Positions 1 to 59,307 of a DNA stretch of 64,000 nucleotides are shown one piece after another (position 1 is the first letter of the stretch; each line of letters opens with the position of its first letter). Below the pieces are notes generated by a model, which saw only the letters and a program-made list of their open reading frames with translations, ran no database searches and had not been told where the DNA came from. Source of the DNA: Candidatus Eiseniibacteriota bacterium. GTDB lineage: Bacteria; Eisenbacteria; RBG-16-71-46. The DNA is taken from the NCBI GenBank assembly GCA_016178725.1, contig JACOSV010000026.1, positions 21,965-85,964 on the forward strand, in the 5' to 3' direction. Both the position numbers and the translations under genes were made by a program.

Positions 1-1898
1 TGCGCGGCTATCTGGTCGAGACGCGGCTCTCGTTCGTCGCCGCGGGCAACGGCTTCGTGACCAACCGCATCCTGAACCCGCACATCACCTACCTCAACTT
101 GAGCGGCCTCGTCATCAATCCCGGCACGCAGACCGAACGCGACTCAGCGATCGCGACGCCGACGGGCGTGGCGTGGGCGGCGAGCGGCGGGCGCGTCTAC
201 GTCACGTCGTTGAGCACGAACAAGCTCGCGGTGATCGATCCCGCCGGCTCCGGCTCGACCAGCGAGATGAAGGCGCGCATCCGCACCGTCGCGGGCCCGA
301 CCGGCGTCGTGGTGGACGACACGCGCGGCCTCATCTACGTCGTCGGGCGGTTCCACAACCAGCTCGAGACGTTCAGCTCGGCGCACATGGACTCGGTCGC
401 GGTCGCGGCGATCGGATTCGATCCGACCCCCGACGACATCGTGAACGGCCGGAAGTTCTTCTACGGCGGATTCACGTCGAGCCACGGCGACCAGTCGTGC
501 GCGAGCTGCCACGTCTTCGGCGACACCGACAACCTGCCGTGGGACCTCGGCGATCCGGCCGGCGCCTACACGCCGCCGCCCGATCCGAATCCGCTCGGCC
601 TCAAGGGATTCGATCCCGAGAAGGGCCCGATGACGACGCAGACGCTGCGCGGGCTCACGAGCACCGAGCCGCTCCACTGGCGCGGCGACCGCGCGGACCT
701 CTCGGCGTTCAATCCCGCGTTCAACTCGCTGCTCGGGCACAGCACCGGCGCGCTGCCGGACTCGGAGAAGGCGGCGTTCAACGCGTTCGTCATGCCGCTC
801 GCGTATCCGTCGAACCCCAACCAGTACCTCAACGATTCGCTCACCGACGCGCCGTCCGGTCAGCCGAGCGCCGAGCGGGGACGCACGTTCTTCATGAACG
901 AGAACGTGGACGGCCAGCGCTGCGTCGACTGCCACAACCTGCCGGCCGGCACCAACCGCCAGATGGTCGCGGCGACCAGCCTCGGCATCGATCAGGACAT
1001 GAAGGTGCCGCAGCTGCGCAACCTGTACACGAAGACCGGCTTCACCAACGCGGCCGGCGCGACCAAGCGCGCGAGCGGCTACACCAATGACGGCACCATC
1101 GACCATGTCTTCGCGTTCCTGCAGGATCCGCGGTTCAACTTCGGCCCGGTGCAGACCGCCGACGACACGCGCCGCGACGTCGCCGCGTATCTGACGTCGT
1201 TCGACACCGGCACCGCGCCGGCGGTGGGATTCCAGGTCACGTTCAACGGGTCGGGGAATCCGACCGGCGTCGCGCAGGTGGACACGCTCGAGACGGTCTA
1301 CGCCCACAACCGCTGCGACGTCATCGCCAAGGGTACCGTCGGCGGCGTGGCGCGCGGCTGGGTCTACATCGGCGGCGACCAGTGGACCTCGGACGTGTAC
1401 GCCGAGACCAACCTCACGACCGCGCAGTTGATCGCCCTCGCCTCGTCGCCGGCGACCGCGCTCACCGTCACCGGCGTCCCGAAGGGGAGCGGCGTGCGCA
1501 TGGGCGTCGATCGCGACCGCGACGGCTTCCGCGACCGCGACGAGATCGAGGCCGGCAGCGATCCCGCCGATCCCGCGTCGATCCCGCCCGCGGGCGTCGC
1601 CGCCCTCCTGCGGCGCGCGGGCGAAGGGATCGAGATGGTGAAGCCGAATCCCGCGAGCGGCCCGGCCGAGATCGTGTTCTCGATCGCGCGCGCGGGGCGC
1701 ATCGACGTCGAGGTCTACGACCTGCTCGGCCGCGCGACGCGCACGGTCGCGCGCGGCGCGTGGTTCACGGCCGGCCGCCACAGCGTGGTGTGGGACGGCC
1801 GCCGCGACGGCGGGCGCGACGCGGGCACGGGCGTCTACTTCGTGCGCGTGCGCAGCGACCACGGCGCGTGGACGCGCATGGTGACGATGCATCGCTAG
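1..1898 (+). CDS. c-type cytochrome, likely di-heme (two CxxCH), with an N-terminal YVTN-type beta-propeller-like region and a C-terminal FlgD-Ig-like sorting-type domain. The 5' end is partial.
   Basis: The frame is open from the window edge to the first start at 57, so the gene continues upstream. Heme-binding motifs are SCASCH and CVDCHN. The repeat resembling the YVTN beta-propeller motif is 'YVTSLSTNKLAVID'. The C-terminal ~75 aa (EIVFSIARAGRIDVEVYDLLGR...GVYFVRVRS) match the C-terminus of the 1181-aa protein at 18509..22054. Confidence 0.6.
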   Translation, partial: RGYLVETRLSFVAAGNGFVTNRILNPHITYLNLSGLVINPGTQTERDSAIATPTGVAWAASGGRVYVTSLSTNKLAVIDPAGSGSTSEMKARIRTVAGPTGVVVDDTRGLIYVVGRFHNQLETFSSAHMDSVAVAAIGFDPTPDDIVNGRKFFYGGFTSSHGDQSCASCHVFGDTDNLPWDLGDPAGAYTPPPDPNPLGLKGFDPEKGPMTTQTLRGLTSTEPLHWRGDRADLSAFNPAFNSLLGHSTGALPDSEKAAFNAFVMPLAYPSNPNQYLNDSLTDAPSGQPSAERGRTFFMNENVDGQRCVDCHNLPAGTNRQMVAATSLGIDQDMKVPQLRNLYTKTGFTNAAGATKRASGYTNDGTIDHVFAFLQDPRFNFGPVQTADDTRRDVAAYLTSFDTGTAPAVGFQVTFNGSGNPTGVAQVDTLETVYAHNRCDVIAKGTVGGVARGWVYIGGDQWTSDVYAETNLTTAQLIALASSPATALTVTGVPKGSGVRMGVDRDRDGFRDRDEIEAGSDPADPASIPPAGVAALLRRAGEGIEMVKPNPASGPAEIVFSIARAGRIDVEVYDLLGRATRTVARGAWFTAGRHSVVWDGRRDGGRDAGTGVYFVRVRSDHGAWTRMVTMHR

Positions 1899-53137: not shown

Positions 53138-54250
53138 TCATGACCTCGCCGCTCGACATCGCGACGCGATCGCCTCGGCGTAGACCTCGCGCACCTGGCG
53201 CGCGACCTCGCTCCAGCCGTAACGCTCGGCACGCAGGCGATTGCGCTCGCCCATCGCGCTCCGCCGCGCCGGATCGCGCGCGAGCTCGGCGATCGCGCCC
53301 GCGAGCGCCGCGCCGTCGCCGGGCGGGATGAGCCGCGCGCCTTCCAGGTCCACCACGTCGCGATAGCCGCGGATGTCCGAGCACACGACCGGCCGCCCGC
53401 ACGCCATCGCCTCGAGCAGCACGATGCCGAAGGACTCCTGGCCGGTCGCCGGGGAGATGAAGAGATCGCAGCGCCGGTAGCGCTCGGCGAGCGTTTCCTC
53501 GACGCCGATCGGGCCGTGGATCGTGACGCCGGGGAGCGCGTGGCTCGCGTCGGGCGTCCCCTGGCCGACGATGTCGAGCGACACCTTCTCGCCGCGCTCG
53601 AGCAACCGGCGATAGGCGTCGAGCAGCACCGGCAGGCCCTTCCGCGGGTCGCGCCAGTTGCCGACGAACAGGAGCCGCAGCGTGCCGTTCGGAGCACTGC
53701 CTTCGCCCGCCGCGGGCGGGCGGAACGTCGCGGTCGGGACGCCGTTCGGGATCACGTGGAGCGGGCGTTTCCACACGCGCCCGGCGTAGTCCGCGGCGGC
53801 GGGCGAGACGGCGATCGCGGCCTGCACGGCGGGGAGGAGCGCGGCGCCCACCACGGCGCGCGCGACGCGGCTCATCGCCGGCTCGGACTCCGCGTACATG
53901 TGGAACGTCGCGACGTGCGCGGCGCGGCCCGGCAGCCGCAGCGCGTACCAGCTGATGACCGGAACGAGCGGCTCGTGGTGGTGGACGACGTCGAACCGTC
54001 CGTGCTGGATCATCGCACCGACCGTCCAGGGCGCGACGAGCAGCGCCATGTGGTTCGCCGCGCCGTTGGCCGGGATGTTGACGATGCCCCCGAACCCGTG
54101 GACGCCGGCGGGCGGCGTCCCCCGGCTCCAGGGGCCGGCGACCGTGACCTCGTCGCCCGCCCGGCGCAATGCGTCCGCGAGGTGGAACGCATGGCGTTTG
54201 ACCCCGCCCTCATCGGCGATGTCGTAGGGGACGACGATGCAAACGCGCAT
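53138..54250 (-). CDS. GT4 glycosyltransferase, PimA-like (phosphatidylinositol mannosyltransferase-like).
   Basis: The N-terminus MRVCIVVPYDIADEGGVKRHAFHLADALRRAGDEVTV resembles PimA. C-terminal E..G.VLLEAMACGRPVV motif. Confidence 0.75.
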   Translation of the reverse strand: MRVCIVVPYDIADEGGVKRHAFHLADALRRAGDEVTVAGPWSRGTPPAGVHGFGGIVNIPANGAANHMALLVAPWTVGAMIQHGRFDVVHHHEPLVPVISWYALRLPGRAAHVATFHMYAESEPAMSRVARAVVGAALLPAVQAAIAVSPAAADYAGRVWKRPLHVIPNGVPTATFRPPAAGEGSAPNGTLRLLFVGNWRDPRKGLPVLLDAYRRLLERGEKVSLDIVGQGTPDASHALPGVTIHGPIGVEETLAERYRRCDLFISPATGQESFGIVLLEAMACGRPVVCSDIRGYRDVVDLEGARLIPPGDGAALAGAIAELARDPARRSAMGERNRLRAERYGWSEVARQVREVYAEAIASRCRAARS

Positions 54251-54282
54251 GGGCGACCGGAAGACGGCCGAACGCTAACGGG

Positions 54283-54900
54283 TCAGCGACGCGCCTCGAT
54301 CGCCTCGGCGAATCGGGCTGCAACCCAGCGGTTACCTTCCTGCGTCAGATGGATCCCGTCGACGAAGCAATCGAGCGGGATGTCCGACAGCTCGACCAGC
54401 GCCAGACGGCGCCGGGCGGCGATCGAGCGATAGGCCTCGTTCAGCTCGAGGACGTGACCGTTCATGCTCCAGGGCTCGCGCGGCGCGCCGAACCCGCGCT
54501 TGCCCGGCAGGGTGGCGAGGTACACGAAGCGTCCCGCCGCGCGGCACTGGTCGAGCACCGCTTCGCAGGCGATCAGCGTCTGCTCGAGCGATCGGTTCTG
54601 CTTCGCGTCGTTGGTCCCGCCCCACAGGCACACTTCGCCGGCCTCGGGCACGGAGAGAAGCTCGTGGTAATTGCGTCGCCAGATCTCGGACCAGCCGTCG
54701 CCCGGCACGGCGAAGTTGACCGTCGCCCAGATCTGGTCGTGCTTCTGGGACAGCATGCGGCCCAGGTACATGGGATAGCTCATCCCGTCCGGGTCACGCG
54801 ACCCGTAGGTCAGCGAATCGCCCTGACAGGCGATGAGTCCGTAAACCAGACCGCGGCGTGTCGTTGGCCTCGTCTCCGTAAGGCTTGCTTGTTCGGTCAT
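54283..54900 (-). CDS. SGNH/GDSL hydrolase (lipase/acylhydrolase-like).
   Basis: GDSLTYG block I, GTNDA block III, DGIHLT block V. Immediately upstream of the GT4 gene on the same strand. Confidence 0.65.
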   Translation of the reverse strand: MTEQASLTETRPTTRRGLVYGLIACQGDSLTYGSRDPDGMSYPMYLGRMLSQKHDQIWATVNFAVPGDGWSEIWRRNYHELLSVPEAGEVCLWGGTNDAKQNRSLEQTLIACEAVLDQCRAAGRFVYLATLPGKRGFGAPREPWSMNGHVLELNEAYRSIAARRRLALVELSDIPLDCFVDGIHLTQEGNRWVAARFAEAIEARR

Positions 54901-55052
54901 CGTCCCCCCATGTCCGCTGCTCGTCGCAATGCCGCCCGGAGTGTATATTCCCGCGCGCCGGTCGAGCAACGTGCCGCCACACCTCACCCGTACCCCGGAG
55001 ACTGCCGGGATCGTCCGGGAGGGCGTCGCCCTTCCTGCCGATTCGCCCGATC

Positions 55053-56429
55053 ATGACCCATTCCCAAACCGTCGAACCCGCTCTCGGAGCGAAAGCTCCG
55101 CGCATCCTGACCGAGATTCCCGGGCCCAAGAGCCGCGCGCTGGTGGCGGCCGAGGCGGCCAATCTGGCGCCGGGTGTCCAGTCCATATCAACTCTTTCGG
55201 GGCTGGCCATGGCCCGCGGCCAGGGCTCGGTCCTCGAGGACGTGGATGGCAACCGGTTCCTCGATCTGGCGGCCGGGATCTGCGTCAACGCCCTGGGCCA
55301 CGCCCACCCCAGGTACCGAAAGATCCTCCAGGACCAGCTCGACGACCTCACGGTCGGCTCGTTCACGACCGAGCATCGGGCGAAGGGGCTGGCCAAGGTC
55401 GCGTCCCATACGCCGCCCGGCCTCGACAAGATCCAGCTCTACTCGGGCGGCACGGAGGCGGTCGAGGCCGCGATGCGCCTCGCCAAATCGGCAACCAAGA
55501 AGTACGAGTTCCTGTCGTTCTGGGGCGGATTCCACGGCAAGAGCGCGGGGACGCTGTCGCTGATCGGGGACGGGACCAAGAACGGCCTCGGTCCCTCGAT
55601 GCCGGGCACGTTCCACGCGCCCTACGCCGACTGCTATCGCTGCCCGCTCGGGATGACCTATCCCTCGTGCGGCGTCGCGTGCGCCGAGTTCGCCGACCAG
55701 GTCATCCGCCATTCGAGCACCGGGGCGCTGGCGGCGATCCTGATCGAGCCGATCCAGGGGACGGCCGGGAACATCGTCCCGCCGCCCGAATACCTGCCGG
55801 CGATCCAGTCGATCGCCAGGCATCACGGGGCGCTGCTGATCGCGGACGAGATGATCACCGGCTTCGGCCGCACCGGCCGCTGGTTCGGGGTCGAGCACAG
55901 CGGCGTCGTGCCCGACGTGATCACGATCGGCAAGGGCCTCGGCGCCGGGTTCCCCGTCTCGGGGCTGGTTTCGACCGACGCGATCACCCGGAGCGCGCCG
56001 TGGGGGCTGCCGTCGGGGTCGAGCTCGAGCTATGGCGGCAATCCGCTCGCGGGTGCGGCCGTCCATGCCTCGGTCAGTGTGATCGAAGAGGACGGACTGG
56101 TCGATAACGCTGCCAGGGTAGGCGAATGGATGCTGGGCCGATTCCGGGAAATGCAAGAGCGGCATCCGTTTATCGGCCACGTCCAGGGCAAGGGCTTGCT
56201 GATCGGCCTCGAACTGGTCAAAGATCGGCAAACGCGCGAGCCACTCGACCGTAAGGTTTGCCGGCACGTGTTTCAGGAGTGTCTCAAGCGCGGGCTGATC
56301 GGCATGGTGTATTCACCGCACGTCCGTGTGAATCCCGCGCTCTCCATCGATCAAGCCACCGCCGAAACGGCGCTCGGGATCCTGGACGAAGTGTTCACGC
56401 AACTGGGGCGGGAGGGTCATTGGCGCTGA
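55053..56429 (+). CDS. Class-III PLP-dependent aminotransferase.
   Basis: ADEMITGFGRTGRWF, TIGKGLGAG (PLP-Lys), Aminotran_3 architecture, 458 aa. Confidence 0.8.
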   Translation: MTHSQTVEPALGAKAPRILTEIPGPKSRALVAAEAANLAPGVQSISTLSGLAMARGQGSVLEDVDGNRFLDLAAGICVNALGHAHPRYRKILQDQLDDLTVGSFTTEHRAKGLAKVASHTPPGLDKIQLYSGGTEAVEAAMRLAKSATKKYEFLSFWGGFHGKSAGTLSLIGDGTKNGLGPSMPGTFHAPYADCYRCPLGMTYPSCGVACAEFADQVIRHSSTGALAAILIEPIQGTAGNIVPPPEYLPAIQSIARHHGALLIADEMITGFGRTGRWFGVEHSGVVPDVITIGKGLGAGFPVSGLVSTDAITRSAPWGLPSGSSSSYGGNPLAGAAVHASVSVIEEDGLVDNAARVGEWMLGRFREMQERHPFIGHVQGKGLLIGLELVKDRQTREPLDRKVCRHVFQECLKRGLIGMVYSPHVRVNPALSIDQATAETALGILDEVFTQLGREGHWR

Positions 56430-58558
56430 AGCTGCGCGGCGCGCTGCTCGGGGCGGGGAACATCGCGCTCAAGAGCCACGCGCCGCAGTGGACGCTCGAT
56501 CCCGAACTGCGCGAACGGGTCGAGATCGTCGCGGTCGCCGACCTCGCGCCCGCCAACATCGCCGCGATCCGCGAGTTCCTACCCGACGCGCGCGCCTACG
56601 CGGATGCCGAGCAGCTGCTCGCCAGCGAGTCGCTCGACTTCTGCGACATCTGCACCCCACCCTTCACACACCGCGCGCTGATCGAGCGCGCCGTGGCCGC
56701 CGGGCTCCACGTCGTGTGCGAGAAGCCGCTCGCGCCGACGCTGGCCGACGCCGAGGCGATCGCCGCGACCGTGCGCGCCGCGGGCATCGTGTTCCTGCCC
56801 TGCCACCAGTACCGCTACTCGCCGCAGTGGGAGGCGGTGCGGCGGCTCCTGCCGCGGATCGGGCGCGTGTCGTTCGCCGAGTACGAGGTGCTGCGCTCGG
56901 CGGCCAACGACGGCAATCCGCACTGGCAGCCGACGTGGCGCACGCAGCCCGAGCTCGCGGGTGGCGGGATCCTCGTGGATCACGGGACCCATATCTTCTA
57001 TCAGCTGCGGGCGCTTCTCGGCACGCCGGACACCGTCGCGGCGACCGTGTCGCGCAGCAAGCATCAGGGCTACGGCGTCGAGGACACCGCCGAGGTGACG
57101 CTCGACTACGGGGATCACGCGGCGCGCATCCATCTCACCTGGGCCGCGGGCCGGCGCGCGATCACGTTCCGCTTCGTCGGCGAGAAGGGCGAGATCGTCG
57201 GCGACGACAGGAGCCTCACGCTGCGCGACGGGCGCACCGAGACGTTCCACTTCGACGACGGCATGAGCCAGAACTCCTCGCATGCGGGCTGGTACCGGCC
57301 GCTGCTGCGTGAGTTCACCGGCCGCGTGCTCGCGGGCGGGTCGAGCGACGAGTCGCTCGACGAGGCGCTCTACGTGACGCGACTGATCGATTGCGCCTAC
57401 GCGTCGGCCGTGGCCGGCCACGCGCTGGCGCTCGGCGCGGATCGGGTCGCGGCCGCGCCGAACGGCGCACCGGTCGCGCCTGCCGCGAGCGTCGCGCACG
57501 TGACCCGCGTGCCCGCGCCGGCCGGGGTTCCGGCGCTGGCGGCGGCTGCGGTCGCCACGCCCGCCGCGAGCGTCACGCCCGCCGAACCGCCCGCGCGCCG
57601 GCGTCACCGCCTCGCGCTCGCGCTGCGGCTCGCGGGGCTGGTCGCGGTGGTCGCCGGCGCCTTTGTGCTCGTCCGCCGGCTCGACTGGTCCGACTTCTGG
57701 GACGCGATCAGCACGTCCGATCCGCGCTGGCTCGCGCTCGCCGCGGCGCTCAACCTCGTGGCGCTGTGCTTCGCCGCGGTCCGCTGGGTCGCGCTGCTGC
57801 GGCCGCTCTCGCCGCTCTCGCGCTGGCGCGACGCGTTCAACGCGCTGGTCGTCGGCCTCACCGTCTCGGCCGTGGTCCCGGCGCGCGGCGGCGAAGTCGC
57901 GCGCATGGCGTGGCTCCATCGCCGCACCGGACTCTCGAAGATCGCGATCCTCGGCTCGATCGGCCTCGATCAGCTGCTCAACGTCGCCGGGCTGATGGTG
58001 GGCCTCGCGCTCATGCCGTGGCTCGGCGGCATTCCGACCTGGCTCCAGTTCGGCGTGCGCCTCGCCCTGTTCGCGTTCGCGGCCGGCGTCACGCTCGTCC
58101 TCCTCCTGCTCCCGCGCGGCGAGCGCGCCCGCGCGGCGGCCGGATCGTCCGGCAGCTTCATGGCGCGCATCCGCTCCGGCCTCGCCGCGGCGCGCAGCCC
58201 GCGCGCGCTCGGCGGATCGCTCGCCGCCTCGCTCACGGTGTGGGGCCTCGAGCTGATCGTGATGCGCGTCGCGCTCCACGCGTTGGACATCGACCTGCCG
58301 TACTCGGCGACGCTGGTGGTGCTCGCCGCGGTCAACCTGATGCTCGCGATTCCGGTCGCGCCGGGGAACATCGGCACGCTCGAGCTCGGCGCGACCCTCG
58401 GGTTGCGCGGCTTCGGCGTCGCCAACGAGCGCGCGCTCGCGTTCGCGGTCTGCTACCACGCGCTGCAGATCGTGCCGATCGCGCTGCTCGGGCTGCTGAT
58501 TGCGGGCGCCGAGAGCTGGAACACCGGCTTCGCCGAGTGGGGTGGCGGCGGCGGATGA
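56420..58558 (+). CDS. Fusion protein: N-terminal Gfo/Idh/MocA-family NAD(P) oxidoreductase plus C-terminal MprF-flippase-like (LPG-synthase TM) membrane domain.
   Basis: GGAGGG then TTG, overlapping the aminotransferase stop. Rossmann LLGAGNIALKSHAP, EKPLA catalytic region. A ~60-aa Ala/Pro linker, then 8 TM helices with the flippase-like family motifs. Confidence 0.6.
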   Translation: MALKLRGALLGAGNIALKSHAPQWTLDPELRERVEIVAVADLAPANIAAIREFLPDARAYADAEQLLASESLDFCDICTPPFTHRALIERAVAAGLHVVCEKPLAPTLADAEAIAATVRAAGIVFLPCHQYRYSPQWEAVRRLLPRIGRVSFAEYEVLRSAANDGNPHWQPTWRTQPELAGGGILVDHGTHIFYQLRALLGTPDTVAATVSRSKHQGYGVEDTAEVTLDYGDHAARIHLTWAAGRRAITFRFVGEKGEIVGDDRSLTLRDGRTETFHFDDGMSQNSSHAGWYRPLLREFTGRVLAGGSSDESLDEALYVTRLIDCAYASAVAGHALALGADRVAAAPNGAPVAPAASVAHVTRVPAPAGVPALAAAAVATPAASVTPAEPPARRRHRLALALRLAGLVAVVAGAFVLVRRLDWSDFWDAISTSDPRWLALAAALNLVALCFAAVRWVALLRPLSPLSRWRDAFNALVVGLTVSAVVPARGGEVARMAWLHRRTGLSKIAILGSIGLDQLLNVAGLMVGLALMPWLGGIPTWLQFGVRLALFAFAAGVTLVLLLLPRGERARAAAGSSGSFMARIRSGLAAARSPRALGGSLAASLTVWGLELIVMRVALHALDIDLPYSATLVVLAAVNLMLAIPVAPGNIGTLELGATLGLRGFGVANERALAFAVCYHALQIVPIALLGLLIAGAESWNTGFAEWGGGGG

Positions 58559-59307
58559 CGCCGACCGCCATCGAGCGCATCGCGTTCCTCTCGTTCCTCA
58601 CGATGATCGCGGTCGCCGTGGTGTCGATGGGCGCCTACGCGTGGCTCGGCCGCAAGCGCGACGCCGACGTCGCGGGCAAGGGCGGCCAGTTCCTCGGCGG
58701 CGCAGGCGATTTCCCGCTCCACTGGTTCATGTGGGCGATCACGCCGGCGGTGACGATCTCGCGCGCGCTCGGCCTCACGCCCGACTTCTACAACTACGTC
58801 GGCCTCGCGTTCGGCATCGCAGGTGGCTGGCTGGTGGCGATCGGGCGGCTCGAGCTCGCCGGCTGGGCGATCGTGCTCGGCGGCGTCGCCGACGTGCTCG
58901 ACGGCCGCATCGCGCGGCTCACTCAGACCGCCTCCAACTTCGGCGACTTCATCGACAGCACGTTCGACCGCTTCGTCGAGGCGGCGACGTTCCTCGGCTT
59001 CGCCTGGTACCTGCGCGACACGCGCTGGGGGCCGCTGCTCTCGGGCGCCGCGCTGTCGGGCTCGCTGATCGTCAGCTACGCGCGCGCGCGCGGCGAAGTG
59101 CACGGCGTCAACTGCACCGGCGGGCTGATGCAGCGCGCCGAGCGCATGGCCTTGACCGCGCTGGTCTGTTTCCTCGGCCCGCCGATCTCGTCGGCGCTCG
59201 GCCTCGCGCACGGCACGCTGATCGAGTGGGTCCTGGGGCTGATCGCCGCCGGCACCTGGTACACCGCGATCTACCGCACCGCCTGGATCGCCGCGCGGCT
59301 GCGCTGA
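58555..59307 (+). CDS. CDP-alcohol phosphatidyltransferase-family protein.
   Basis: DVLDGRIARLTQTASNFGDFIDSTFDRF fits the D-G-x2-A-R-x8-G-x3-D-x3-D signature. Polytopic membrane protein. ATGA overlap with the upstream gene. Confidence 0.8.
   Translation: MTPTAIERIAFLSFLTMIAVAVVSMGAYAWLGRKRDADVAGKGGQFLGGAGDFPLHWFMWAITPAVTISRALGLTPDFYNYVGLAFGIAGGWLVAIGRLELAGWAIVLGGVADVLDGRIARLTQTASNFGDFIDSTFDRFVEAATFLGFAWYLRDTRWGPLLSGAALSGSLIVSYARARGEVHGVNCTGGLMQRAERMALTALVCFLGPPISSALGLAHGTLIEWVLGLIAAGTWYTAIYRTAWIAARLR

Follow-up and report, generated by a model that had tools for sequence, protein, structure and literature searches.

We identified a genuine and conserved gene that fuses a dehydrogenase to a flippase-like membrane domain, and this gene is the middle one of a conserved three-gene operon in the window, the 64-kb stretch of DNA analysed here. 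Its product is a two-domain inner-membrane protein made up of a cytoplasmic cyclitol/sugar dehydrogenase, a flexible tether and a predicted lipid-translocating domain (Table 1). We hold with roughly even confidence that the operon makes and exports an amine-bearing inositol-type phospholipid, through oxidation and transamination of the lipid-bound headgroup followed by translocation; for this pathway we infer that the substrate is an inositol headgroup, that the product is an amine, in which order the steps run, and that the transmembrane (TM) domain translocates the lipid.

Table 1. Positions of the operon, its flanking genes and the domains of the fusion protein in the window
Feature	Positions	Strand	Remarks
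GT4 glycosyltransferase	53138..54250	-	Divergent from operon; Pfam Glyco_trans_1_4 / Glyco_transf_4
GDSL-family lipase/acylhydrolase	54283..54987	-	Between GT4 gene and operon; Pfam Lipase_GDSL_2, E 4e-20
Class-III (PLP) aminotransferase	55053..56429	+	458 aa; first operon gene; Pfam Aminotran_3, E 1e-92
Fusion gene (dehydrogenase + linker + MprF-type TM domain)	56420..58558	+	712 aa plus stop
Gfo/Idh/MocA NAD-dependent dehydrogenase domain	56420..57439	+	Residues 1-340; Pfam; predicted cytoplasmic
Ala/Pro/Val-rich flexible linker	57440..57604	+	Residues 341-395; ends RRR before TM1
PF03706 'flippase-like' membrane domain	57605..58555	+	Residues 396-712; similar to MprF Subdomain 1
CDP-alcohol phosphatidyltransferase, PIP-synthase/AIP-synthase type	58555..59307	+	250 aa; Pfam CDP-OH_P_transf, E 5e-13

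The fusion gene and its dehydrogenase domain

The preliminary description had read the fusion as one continuous frame and asked whether a frameshift had merged two genes. Our ORF reading of the window agreed with the single frame: there is no internal stop between the TTG start codon at 56420, which is preceded by GGAGGG, and the TGA stop codon (58556-58558). Third-position GC in this frame is 0.86-0.98 and uninterrupted across the linker, a region where frame +1 has a stop. An identical 712-aa protein was called independently by NCBI in a Candidatus Eisenbacteria MAG (MBI1796227.1, "flippase-like domain-containing protein"). Moreover, at least 120 independent protein clusters from JGI, ENA, Logan and NCBI carry the same architecture as a single chain; these listed homologues are 685-727 aa long, share 50-70% identity and all have the same four Pfam domains. 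Their linkers differ in length (28-60 aa) and are always in frame, and both flanking domains stay conserved. Split or shifted frames in loci L007, L024, L025 and L032, several of which are long-read MAGs, would fit an assembly or sequencing frameshift that joined two separate genes. However, the conserved single-chain architecture, the unbroken coding-type GC3, the in-frame variable linkers and the NCBI call refute such an origin, to which we assign a negligible probability. The family includes members from Vicinamibacteria, 'Eisenbacteria' and Gemmatimonadaceae MAGs; the architecture, first taken to be unusual, is not rare but forms a sizeable family, which public databases already list under generic names.

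The N-terminal domain had been named correctly as a Gfo/Idh/MocA dehydrogenase. Pfam GFO_IDH_MocA (PF01408) matched residues 7-124 (E 3e-19, 70.3 bits against a cut-off of 24) and GFO_IDH_MocA_C/C3 matched residues 146-336 (E 7e-19 / 3e-21), with PF02894 at 69 bits (cut-off 22.9) and PF22725 at 76.1 bits (cut-off 27), which places the domain among the oxidoreductases that combine a Rossmann fold with a C-terminal alpha/beta domain. The GAGNIA Rossmann motif, D41 after beta2, E101-K102-P103 with the EKP lysine, and D187 and H191 of the GGGxxxDxGxH segment are invariant in 24 homologues, and the EKP lysine and the Asp/His residues are also present in distant unfused orthologues. The invariance of K102, D187 and H191 predicts that the dehydrogenase is catalytically competent. 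The fold resembles inositol, scyllo-inositol, levoglucosan and GenD2 dehydrogenases (TMt 0.75-0.87). Among named families IolG (NCBIfam TIGR04380) scored best, its 73.8 bits lying far under the 355-bit equivalog cut-off. The linker, estimated beforehand at about 60 aa, has 55 aa, 55% of them Ala or Pro, so the estimate was fair; its sequence is not conserved among homologues. AlphaFold modelling of the whole chain gave pLDDT <50 at residues 341-390 and no confident docking of the dehydrogenase onto the TM domain (pTM 0.51).

The membrane domain compared with MprF

Pfam, hydropathy, AlphaFold and Foldseek all confirmed the C-terminal part as an 8-TM domain of the MprF flippase-like type, as originally proposed. 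LPG_synthase_TM (PF03706) matched residues 405-691 (E 4e-48, 164.8 bits against a cut-off of 33.4), and NCBIfam TIGR00374 (flippase-like, UPF0104/YbhN-like) scored 49.9 bits, above its 43.2 cut-off. Hydropathy and AlphaFold resolved eight transmembrane elements, two of which are broken helices, and the domain modelled alone reached pLDDT 90.8 and pTM 0.86. Foldseek matched this model to MprF only among PDB structures (9j8s, 9j8q, 9goe, 7f47, 7duw and 6lvf; TMq 0.62-0.66, probability 1.0), the next match having a TM of 0.21; PDB sequence and profile searches gave no alignment of the domain to MprF. The half-helix pairs 469-485/490-503 and 628-642/653-663 correspond to TM3a/3b and TM7a/7b of MprF (PMC8131360). 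K/R-rich loops at 395-399, 461-507 and 565-596 indicate an N-in topology, which would place the dehydrogenase on the cytoplasmic side, next to the inner leaflet.

The comparison with MprF as a cytoplasmic headgroup-modifying enzyme joined to a PF03706 domain holds at the fold level. MprF (7DUW, 6LVF, 7F47, 9J8S) has the same PF03706 fold, with half-helices 3a/3b and 7a/7b in TM1-8, and a covalently joined cytoplasmic enzyme that makes the headgroup more cationic, as is predicted for the fusion; the shared predicted logic is modification at the inner leaflet, then translocation. However, the earlier statement that the dehydrogenase replaces the synthase does not describe the protein well. The domain order is reversed, with the enzyme N-terminal in the fusion, and that enzyme is an NAD dehydrogenase rather than a tRNA-dependent GNAT-type synthase. 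Installing the amine takes a second enzyme, the aminotransferase. The predicted lipid is of the inositol type in the fusion system and PG in MprF. Furthermore, only MprF Subdomain 1 (TM1-8) is represented: the fusion ends after the eighth TM without Subdomain 2 (TM9-14), Pfam found no aminoacyl-PG synthase domain, and the score for NCBIfam bifunc_MprF was 31 bits against a cut-off of 600.

In RtMprF, Glu280 and Arg304 form a gate pair and TM8 carries a YRxxY motif, while Subdomain 2 of MprF contributes a large part of the periplasmic cavity and must be contacted for flipping to be optimal (PMC8131360). Judged from motif spacing only, P648...E655 of the fusion correspond to MprF P273...E280 (RtMprF numbering, PMC8131360), and Y679-H680-x-L-Q683 sits at the YRxxY position, where the motif appears as YHxLQ. 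Two MprF reports describe its TM domains as translocating or scrambling lipids (PMC8131360; PMC11980842). The PF03706 domain could instead be an anchor or scaffold, or have another membrane role without lipid translocation, in an operon that still modifies an inositol-type lipid. Such a role would suit a domain limited to Subdomain 1, given that the periplasmic cavity of MprF needs Subdomain 2 (PMC8131360), and one in which the gate arginine appears, by spacing, as histidine; our literature search also found no demonstrated activity for any stand-alone PF03706 protein. We nevertheless consider it unlikely. For plain anchoring, conservation of all eight TM elements would be unnecessary, as would the roughly 40 invariant positions, among them P645/P648/N650/G652/E655 and Y679/H680 within the half-helix region. 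Moreover, unfused clusters keep separate PF03706 genes, which also occur beside Bacteroidetes inositol-lipid clusters, and their retention argues for a function of PF03706 proteins of their own in the pathway.

The operon and its inositol-phosphate-type transferase

The stop codon of the aminotransferase gene (56427-56429) overlaps the TTG start of the fusion, and the ATG of the transferase gene overlaps the TGA of the fusion (ATGA), indicating that the three genes are translationally coupled. Of 83 related loci, 73 have the aminotransferase gene directly upstream of the dehydrogenase gene, and all three operon genes co-occur in L001, L003-L012, L017 and L028 amid differing flanking genes. Only L017 and L028 have orthologues of the GT4 gene (454-459 bits) at this position, the gene being missing at L001 and L003, and a GDSL lipase gene is also found upstream in L028; both genes are possible accessory genes with a weak link to the operon. 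The aminotransferase scored 311.4 bits for PF00202 (cut-off 30.5), which places it in class III, and had generic class-III matches in NCBIfam and PDB. Its start was set at the Met that is residue 57 of the ORF, in agreement with homologues of 448-456 aa. None of the three operon proteins reaches an NCBIfam equivalog cut-off.

The transferase scored 122.7 bits for AIP synthase (cut-off 180), 94.5 for PIPS (170) and 98.2 for the BT_1523 type (350), and 23 and 27 bits for PgsA and PssA. Being under every PIPS/AIPS equivalog cut-off in NCBIfam, it is a divergent relative of these enzymes and not a filed member. Its top PDB match was M. tuberculosis PgsA1 (6h53). The catalytic motif Dx2DGx2AR...Gx3Dx3D is present as D113x2D116G117x2A120R121x8G130x3D134x3D138, and, apart from A120 (Ser in three), each position checked is conserved across all 24 homologues. 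In PgsA1, R94, S132, K135, R152, R155 and R195 bind the phosphate of inositol phosphate, and R94 is conserved in inositol-phosphate-using enzymes (PgsA1 paper). The first five correspond to R139, S174, R177, R194 and R197 of the transferase, and these pocket equivalents, together with that of PgsA1 Y133, are conserved in 23-24 of the 24 homologues; the R195 equivalent falls outside the alignment. By these residues, the transferase carries an inositol-phosphate-type signature.

Related clusters and the proposed aminocyclitol lipid

About 50 loci spread over many phyla contain the aminotransferase-dehydrogenase pair within inositol-lipid-type clusters, and in 25 loci orthologous pairs lie beside MIPS (myo-inositol-1-phosphate synthase). 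Distant pairs with 36-45% identity come from Alpha- and Deltaproteobacteria, Nitrospirae, Methylomirabilota, Chloroflexi, Thermoanaerobaculia and others. Their clusters contain, besides the pair, MIPS, a HAD phosphatase, an NTP-transferase (nucleotidyltransferase), an ATP-grasp-like unknown with a weak inositol-polyphosphate-kinase match (E 0.0018), a CDP-alcohol transferase of 413 aa and a separate PF03706 gene. A putative 'alternative' inositol-lipid cluster of Bacteroidetes comprises MIPS, an NTP transferase, a CDP-alcohol transferase and a HAD protein, and is neighboured by a homologue of BT_1521 ('lysylphosphatidylglycerol synthase', PF03706) (Heaver et al. 2022, PMC9246714). By their gene set, which includes the PF03706 gene, the distant clusters are this alternative cluster with an aminotransferase and a dehydrogenase added.

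The operon of the window resembles bacterial PI pathways (PgsA1/BT_1523) in its PIPS/AIPS-type transferase with catalytic motif and inositol-phosphate pocket. It differs in its dehydrogenase and aminotransferase, which PgsA1/BT_1523 and the alternative cluster lack, in the transferase scores under the PIPS and AIPS equivalog cut-offs, and in having no adjacent MIPS or phosphatase. Neither MIPS nor an inositol-phosphate or PIP phosphatase was found in the window or within 6-10 kb of window-type operons, so the inositol source is assumed. This would also fit a pair that adds an amine to a headgroup other than inositol, made of a polyol or sugar (such as glycerol, hexose or pentitol phosphate), to give an aminopolyol lipid, for example of the aminopentanetetrol type. 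Consistent with such a headgroup, the dehydrogenase scores far under the cut-off for IolG and matches numerous sugar dehydrogenases equally well, its active-site motif is PCHQY in window-type and TVHNW in MIPS-linked proteins, and class-III aminotransferases typically take aldehydes or omega-amines. However, the much closer match of the transferase to AIPS/PIPS than to PgsA/PssA models, its retained R94 equivalent and the MIPS genes adjoining orthologous pairs speak for inositol, and we judge a different headgroup quite improbable.

In the pathway that we favour, the transferase would join CDP-diacylglycerol to an inositol-phosphate-type alcohol, the dehydrogenase would form a ketone by oxidising a single hydroxyl on the ring of the inositol headgroup, and the aminotransferase would convert the ketone to an amine. 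The resulting aminocyclitol (inosamine-type) phospholipid would be less anionic than phosphatidylinositol, and the PF03706 domain would move it to the outer leaflet, a logic similar to that of MprF in making and flipping lysyl-PG. Alternatively, the dehydrogenase and aminotransferase may act on soluble inositol (phosphate), and the transferase would then couple the inosamine phosphate to CDP-diacylglycerol. The fusion would just co-localise the dehydrogenase with the membrane machinery, the TM domain would flip the finished lipid, and the end product would be the same with another step order. We regard this route as a tentative but substantial possibility. The pocket of the transferase is predicted to bind the phosphate of a phosphorylated alcohol; the HAD phosphatase, nucleotidyltransferase and ATP-grasp-like protein would fit a Kennedy-type route with an activated aminocyclitol (PMC9246714); known pairs such as Hyg17/Hyg8 use soluble substrates; and most relatives have the dehydrogenase as a soluble, unfused protein. 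However, two independent fusions have joined the dehydrogenase to different membrane proteins of the pathway, namely PF03706 and, in P0170 (L084), the CDP-alcohol transferase, where a PF03706 gene then follows. A membrane-located substrate explains these two fusions more easily, and a dehydrogenase-transferase fusion would join non-consecutive steps of the soluble route, in which the aminotransferase step comes in between.

It had been proposed that oxidation acts on, or is coupled to translocation of, a lipid-linked substrate. The lipid-linked process is strongly supported by the operon, the related clusters and the fusions, whereas covalent coupling to translocation is not required: two sub-clades of close relatives carry an unfused dehydrogenase, indicating that the fusion is evolutionarily labile and the tethering dispensable. 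Two uncharacterised fusions with other partners are similar. P0144 joins a polysaccharide deacetylase to a TM domain 50% identical to that of the window, and its enzyme would again expose a free amine on a headgroup; P0170 combines the transferase of the pathway with a dehydrogenase of the same family.

The scyllo-inosamine route to streptomycin forms an aminocyclitol by the same chemistry as proposed here. The inosose aminotransferases characterised in aminoglycoside pathways are, as far as is known, of the DegT family and not class III, which is a point against the proposed pathway. Oxidation followed by transamination also puts an amine on a headgroup precursor in the GnnA/GnnB dehydrogenase/aminotransferase pair, which makes UDP-GlcNAc3N for lipid A, and in the Arn pathway, which leads to undecaprenyl-phosphate-L-Ara4N with the ArnE/F flippase. 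In these systems an amine-bearing lipid crosses the inner membrane and lowers the negative surface charge, but they differ in using nucleotide sugars, DegT-type aminotransferases, polyprenyl or lipid A carriers and unrelated flippases. Similarly, hygromycin A biosynthesis leads from glucose-6-phosphate to an inosamine through MIPS, a phosphatase, the Gfo/Idh/MocA dehydrogenase Hyg17 and the aminotransferase Hyg8 (Hyg18/Hyg25/Hyg17/Hyg8, PMC10949010), again with the chemistry proposed here. These antibiotic pathways are soluble secondary-metabolite routes of actinomycetes without a lipid transferase or flippase-like protein, whereas the pair of the operon is embedded among phospholipid-synthesis genes across many phyla. 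Our literature search found no report of an inosamine phospholipid and no description of a dehydrogenase-flippase system. If the proposed pathway is true, its product would be an undescribed amine-bearing inositol-type membrane phospholipid.

A conserved dehydrogenase-membrane domain fusion

The preliminary description had placed a Gfo/Idh/MocA dehydrogenase and an MprF-type membrane domain in one polypeptide, and its account of position, domains and linker proved correct. The gene is one open frame of 712 codons with a TTG start and GGAGGG eight bases before it. The stop of the upstream gene and this start share a 10-nt overlap, and the ATG of the downstream gene overlaps the TGA of the fusion as ATGA.

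Features of the fusion gene and its neighbourhood (positions in the window; residues of the fusion protein)
Feature	Fusion residues	Window position	Strand	Remarks
GT4 glycosyltransferase and GDSL hydrolase genes		53138-54987	-	divergent from operon
Class-III aminotransferase gene		55053-56429	+	upstream of fusion; Pfam E 1e-92
Fusion gene		56420-58558	+
GFO_IDH_MocA	7-124			Pfam
Gfo/Idh/MocA C-terminal domains	146-336			Pfam
Trp/Arg-rich loop	159-180	56895-56960
Linker	341-395			55 aa, Ala+Pro 55%
LPG_synthase_TM (PF03706)	405-691			Pfam E 4e-48
Half-helix/TM8 region	649-682	58364-58465
CDP-alcohol phosphatidyltransferase gene		58555-59307	+	downstream of fusion; 250 aa; Pfam

A frameshift merging two genes at the linker was excluded, and the product is thus one genuine polypeptide, as had been proposed. 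Third-position GC remained at 0.86-0.98 across the linker in the fusion frame, with a stop present in frame +1. Searching 5.8 billion proteins gave 211 relatives; those listed (at least 120, from JGI, ENA, Logan and NCBI assemblies) were 685-727 aa long and 50-70% identical, and all carried the identical set of four Pfam domains with the linker in frame. Alignment of 24 relatives showed about 130 invariant columns and strong conservation of both domains, while the linker was unconserved and varied from 28 to 60 aa, the pattern expected of a true inter-domain tether. Moreover, NCBI lists the same 712-aa product under MBI1796227.1 ('flippase-like domain-containing protein [Candidatus Eisenbacteria bacterium]'), on a MAG contig of 135.5 kb to which the window corresponds, indicating that an independent gene caller agrees. 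In four related loci (L007:279-2552, L024, L025 and L032) the dehydrogenase and TM parts lie in adjacent ORFs or shifted frames; several of these are long-read MAG assemblies, and the split frames are probably assembly indels. The 90%-identity cluster holding the window protein is represented by a 48-aa Salmonella 'hypothetical protein', which appears to be an artefact of how the protein collection was clustered.

Clustering of a protein library at 50% identity reduced the full-length architecture to one cluster plus fragments. Stand-alone dehydrogenases of 340 aa and stand-alone PF03706 proteins of 300-350 aa far outnumbered it, indicating that the fusion is a lineage-restricted event inside a larger family. 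The architecture had been called unusual. It is not rare, being shared by a family of at least 120 protein clusters, and it already stands in public databases under the generic names 'flippase-like domain-containing protein', 'lysylphosphatidylglycerol synthase domain-containing protein' and 'predicted dehydrogenase/YbhN'; the literature searched gave no account of it. By itself the fusion is a modest curiosity; the pathway that it indicates is the more interesting result.

The membrane and dehydrogenase domains

Hydropathy and the AlphaFold model both gave eight membrane elements, in line with the 8-TM MprF-type domain first described. To judge from the Lys/Arg-rich loops at residues 395-399, 461-507 and 565-596, the topology is N-in and the dehydrogenase domain is cytoplasmic. 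Modelled alone, the TM domain reached a pLDDT of 90.8 and a pTM of 0.86, and its structural matches in the PDB were MprF only (Foldseek, TMq 0.62-0.66, probability 1.0; next match TM 0.21). The broken helices 469-485/490-503 and 628-642/653-663 correspond to TM3a/3b and TM7a/7b of MprF Subdomain 1, which forms a cytoplasmic lipid-binding cavity (PMC8131360). PDB sequence searches with the TM domain gave no match to E 10 (single sequence) or E 1 (profile), so the link to MprF comes from the fold search and residues were mapped by motif spacing. Mapped in this way, P648...E655 would correspond to P273...E280 of MprF, and Y679-H680-x-L-Q683 to Y303-R304-x-x-Y307 (RtMprF numbering). Both fusion motifs, P-x-N-x-G-T-x-E(655) and Y(679)-H(680)-x-L-Q, are family-invariant and lie in the half-helix/TM8 region, and H680 appears to take the place of the arginine in the YRxxY gate of MprF.

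In its architecture and predicted logic the fusion resembles MprF, but the synthase domain and Subdomain 2 are lacking, the domain order is reversed, and the NCBIfam MprF score of 31 is far from the cut-off of 600. The protein is not an MprF; it belongs to the flippase-like TIGR00374 family. Lipid flipping by the TM domain, which lacks Subdomain 2, is no more than plausible; the TM domain of P. aeruginosa MprF has been reported as a promiscuous scramblase (PMC11980842). In the full-length model each domain was confident and the linker between them disordered (pLDDT <50 at 341-390), with no confident mutual orientation of dehydrogenase and TM domain (pTM 0.51).

Invariant features of the dehydrogenase among the 24 relatives were the GAGNIA Rossmann motif, D41 after beta2, the EKP lysine K102 and D187/H191; the acidic D41 suggests a preference for NAD. 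The fold fitted scyllo-/myo-inositol dehydrogenases, levoglucosan dehydrogenase, GenD2 and glucuronide 3-dehydrogenase about equally, and the top NCBIfam family was IolG (73.8 bits, below the cut-off of 355). The domain is a member of the Gfo/Idh/MocA family, to which these matches assign no particular substrate. Directly before the GGGILxDHGxH active-site segment lies a highly conserved Trp/Arg-rich loop, R-x-x-AN-x-GNP-x-W-x-P-x-WRT, modelled at low confidence (pLDDT 52-57), whose WRxDP part is common to distant orthologues. It may lie at the interface with the substrate or with the membrane.

The operon and its phosphatidyltransferase

The order aminotransferase, fusion, transferase was kept, tightly packed, in L001, L003-L012, L017 and L028, whose flanks are otherwise unrelated; the conserved unit is therefore this trio. 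All three products score below every NCBIfam equivalog cut-off. AtuA, a 3-hydroxyacyl-CoA dehydrogenase, an aldehyde dehydrogenase and ZnuA/ZnuB were rejected as operon partners, as none of them lies beside the operon elsewhere. A hopanoid HpnL/HpnO-like system was also dropped, since the neighbourhood holds no hopanoid genes and it is a PIPS-like transferase that is conserved beside the fusion. Neither myo-inositol-1-phosphate synthase (MIPS) nor a phosphatase was found near the operons of this type or in the 64-kb window. Over the same 64 kb, the tRNA scan was empty and the Rfam scan had no matches at the gathering score. The GC content of the window is 72%.

Among NCBIfam families the transferase scored best against archaetidylinositol-phosphate synthase (122.7 bits) and PIP synthases (94.5 and 98.2 bits), with 23-27 bits for PgsA and PssA. 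Its best solved relative was M. tuberculosis PgsA1, and in the HMMER alignment it retained the full catalytic motif as well as equivalents of R94, S132, Y133, K135, R152 and R155, conserved in 23-24 of 24 operon homologues. In the PgsA1 paper these residues form the inositol-phosphate pocket, in which S132, R152 and R155 contact a bound sulfate, and R94 is conserved among enzymes using inositol phosphate. From these signatures the enzyme is assigned as a divergent relative of PIP/AIP synthases, and we infer that it would join CDP-diacylglycerol to a phosphorylated cyclitol-type alcohol.

The PDB relatives of the aminotransferase were generic class-III enzymes only and offered no clue to specificity; to our knowledge, the characterised inosose aminotransferases are of the DegT type, not class III. 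The divergent GT4 and GDSL arrangement recurs in L028, and GT4 alone in L017, only in these closest loci. The GT4 and GDSL products could decorate the lipid, much as PimA and acyltransferases decorate PI; alternatively, the arrangement may reflect nothing more than lineage synteny. Two unrelated loci have a NUDIX hydrolase gene a short way downstream of the operon, separated from it by a few genes (L001:14059-15287 and L084:5281-5850); a NUDIX gene is also found in the mycobacterial PI operon.

Related clusters and a candidate aminocyclitol phospholipid pathway

A one-genome-per-species scan gave 80 loci, which were analysed together with L001-L003. The clade that includes the window's operon (Vicinamibacteria, 'Eisenbacteria', Gemmatimonadaceae, Krumholzibacteriia and Latescibacteria) comprises fused genes as well as two sub-clades whose operon carries the dehydrogenase unfused, showing that fusion and fission are labile. 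Some of the unfused close relatives have a separate PF03706 gene near the operon, either upstream or on the other strand (L016:3797-4621(-), L021:3050-4087(-), L018:2760-4502(+)), consistent with fission or fusion rather than loss of function.

About 50 distant loci (L029, L033-L083) from Alpha-/Deltaproteobacteria, Nitrospirae, Methylomirabilota, Rokubacteria, Chloroflexi, Thermoanaerobaculia and Binatia carry dehydrogenases 33-45% identical to that of the window, always adjoined by the aminotransferase. Active-site motifs show some differences between the window-type and MIPS-linked dehydrogenases. A typical distant cluster (L038:1067-10456) encodes MIPS, a HAD hydrolase, an NTP-transferase, a 283-aa protein with weak ATP-grasp/inositol-polyphosphate-kinase (inositol-trisphosphate-kinase) similarity (E 0.0018), the aminotransferase, the dehydrogenase, a 413-aa CDP-alcohol transferase and a stand-alone PF03706 protein; MlaA is also present in 11 loci. 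Within 6 kb in the analysed related loci, we counted MIPS in 25, HAD in 36, the NTP-transferase in 38, the 283-aa protein in 42, the 413-aa transferase in 44 and PF03706 in 31. The HAD, NTP-transferase and 283-aa-protein genes are at times fused (L068:2325-4580). The Pfam content (MIPS, HAD, NTP-transferase, CDP-alcohol transferase, PF03706) led us to reject a catabolic or ABC-transport cluster. Heaver et al. proposed an alternative inositol-lipid pathway in Bacteroidetes, and a 'lysylphosphatidylglycerol synthase' (BT_1521 homologue) lies beside both kinds of inositol-lipid cluster (PMC9246714). The distant clusters share the gene set of that alternative cluster but add the aminotransferase and dehydrogenase. 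The literature searched gave no account of such a module in inositol-lipid clusters or of an inosamine/aminoinositol phospholipid, and searches on clusters of MIPS, aminotransferase and CDP-alcohol transferase, on BT_1521 function and on aminopentanetetrol biosynthesis gave no description of the system.

Two further fusions were identified. P0170 (629 aa; L084:121-3002; GCA_041482955.1, JBGPET010000018.1) is a CDP-alcohol phosphatidyltransferase in one chain with the dehydrogenase. A C-terminal fragment of an aminotransferase lies before it, and the next gene, a PF03706 gene of 331 aa, overlaps the P0170 stop with its start; further downstream come a second, short CDP-alcohol transferase, an alpha/beta hydrolase and the NUDIX gene. 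P0144 (602 aa) combines a polysaccharide deacetylase (PF01522) with a PF03706 TM domain 50% identical to that of the window, and so gives, by its domains, another example of such a TM domain with a partner enzyme predicted to free a headgroup amine. The four functions are thus encoded by separate genes in some loci and combined in pairs, in two different ways, in others, which is strong evidence for one membrane pathway.

Dehydrogenase followed by aminotransferase is the standard route from a hydroxyl to an amine. In the accepted proposal for hygromycin A, MIPS, a phosphatase, the Gfo/Idh/MocA dehydrogenase Hyg17, whose activity has been demonstrated, and the aminotransferase Hyg8 yield an inosamine (PMC10949010). 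The most economical reading of the operon is that the inositol-phosphate-type transferase, dehydrogenase and aminotransferase would make an aminocyclitol phospholipid, which the MprF-type domain would then move to the outer leaflet. Such a product would be zwitterionic where PI is anionic, an outcome resembling the conversion of PG to lysyl-PG by MprF. The domains, the fusion, the operon, the transferase signature and the link to MIPS clusters are observed; the substrate, the product, the order of steps and the translocation are predicted. We regard membership of an inositol-type phospholipid headgroup pathway as highly probable, and lean slightly towards an amine on the cyclitol of the product. 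Points that weaken the scheme are that MIPS and a phosphatase were not found around window-type operons, that all three proteins score below the equivalog cut-offs, that the aminotransferase is of class III, that the TM domain lacks Subdomain 2 and that active-site motifs differ from those of the MIPS-linked dehydrogenases. The preliminary description also proposed that oxidation acts on, or is coupled to translocation of, a lipid-linked substrate; the operon, the related clusters and the fusions strongly support that the oxidation belongs to a lipid-linked process. It may take place on the lipid, as the two membrane fusions would favour, or on soluble inositol phosphate, for which the transferase's phosphate pocket speaks, as do genes for a kinase, a nucleotidyltransferase and a phosphatase in the distant clusters. 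The complete scheme, with oxidation at either stage, could equally well hold or fail.

A small MAG contig of Thermodesulfatator (L076, 4.3 kb) has part of the cluster, with the aminotransferase and dehydrogenase genes and a weak match to the CDP-alcohol transferase. Aminopentanetetrol phospholipids occur in Aquificales and Thermodesulfobacteria, and no biosynthetic genes for them were found in the literature searched; a link between the two is pure speculation.

In its broadest form, which is tentative and rather doubtful, the operon and the MIPS-containing clusters across many phyla would make a new lipid class, an inosamine-type phospholipid. The fusion would oxidise the PI headgroup at the membrane surface and its MprF-type domain would deliver the aminated zwitterionic product to the outer leaflet, as a tRNA-independent MprF analogue common in soil Acidobacteriota-like bacteria. 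If true, inositol amination would be a new bacterial phospholipid headgroup chemistry, directly testable with three genes and a mass spectrometer. It would give a pathway context to the large stand-alone PF03706/UPF0104 'flippase-like' family and explain the presence of PF03706 genes, BT_1521 of gut Bacteroides among them, next to inositol-lipid clusters. The carriers come from soil and sediment groups that are abundant and for the most part uncultured (Vicinamibacteria, 'Eisenbacteria', Gemmatimonadota, Methylomirabilota, Nitrospirota, Delta-/Alphaproteobacteria), whose unidentified polar lipids matter for environmental lipid biomarkers. Cultured carriers of the MIPS-linked cluster include Pseudolabrys, Myxococcales and Desulfobacterales. 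The pathway would also be a second, tRNA-independent route by which bacteria make the membrane surface less negatively charged, a matter of interest for cationic-peptide resistance and acid tolerance.
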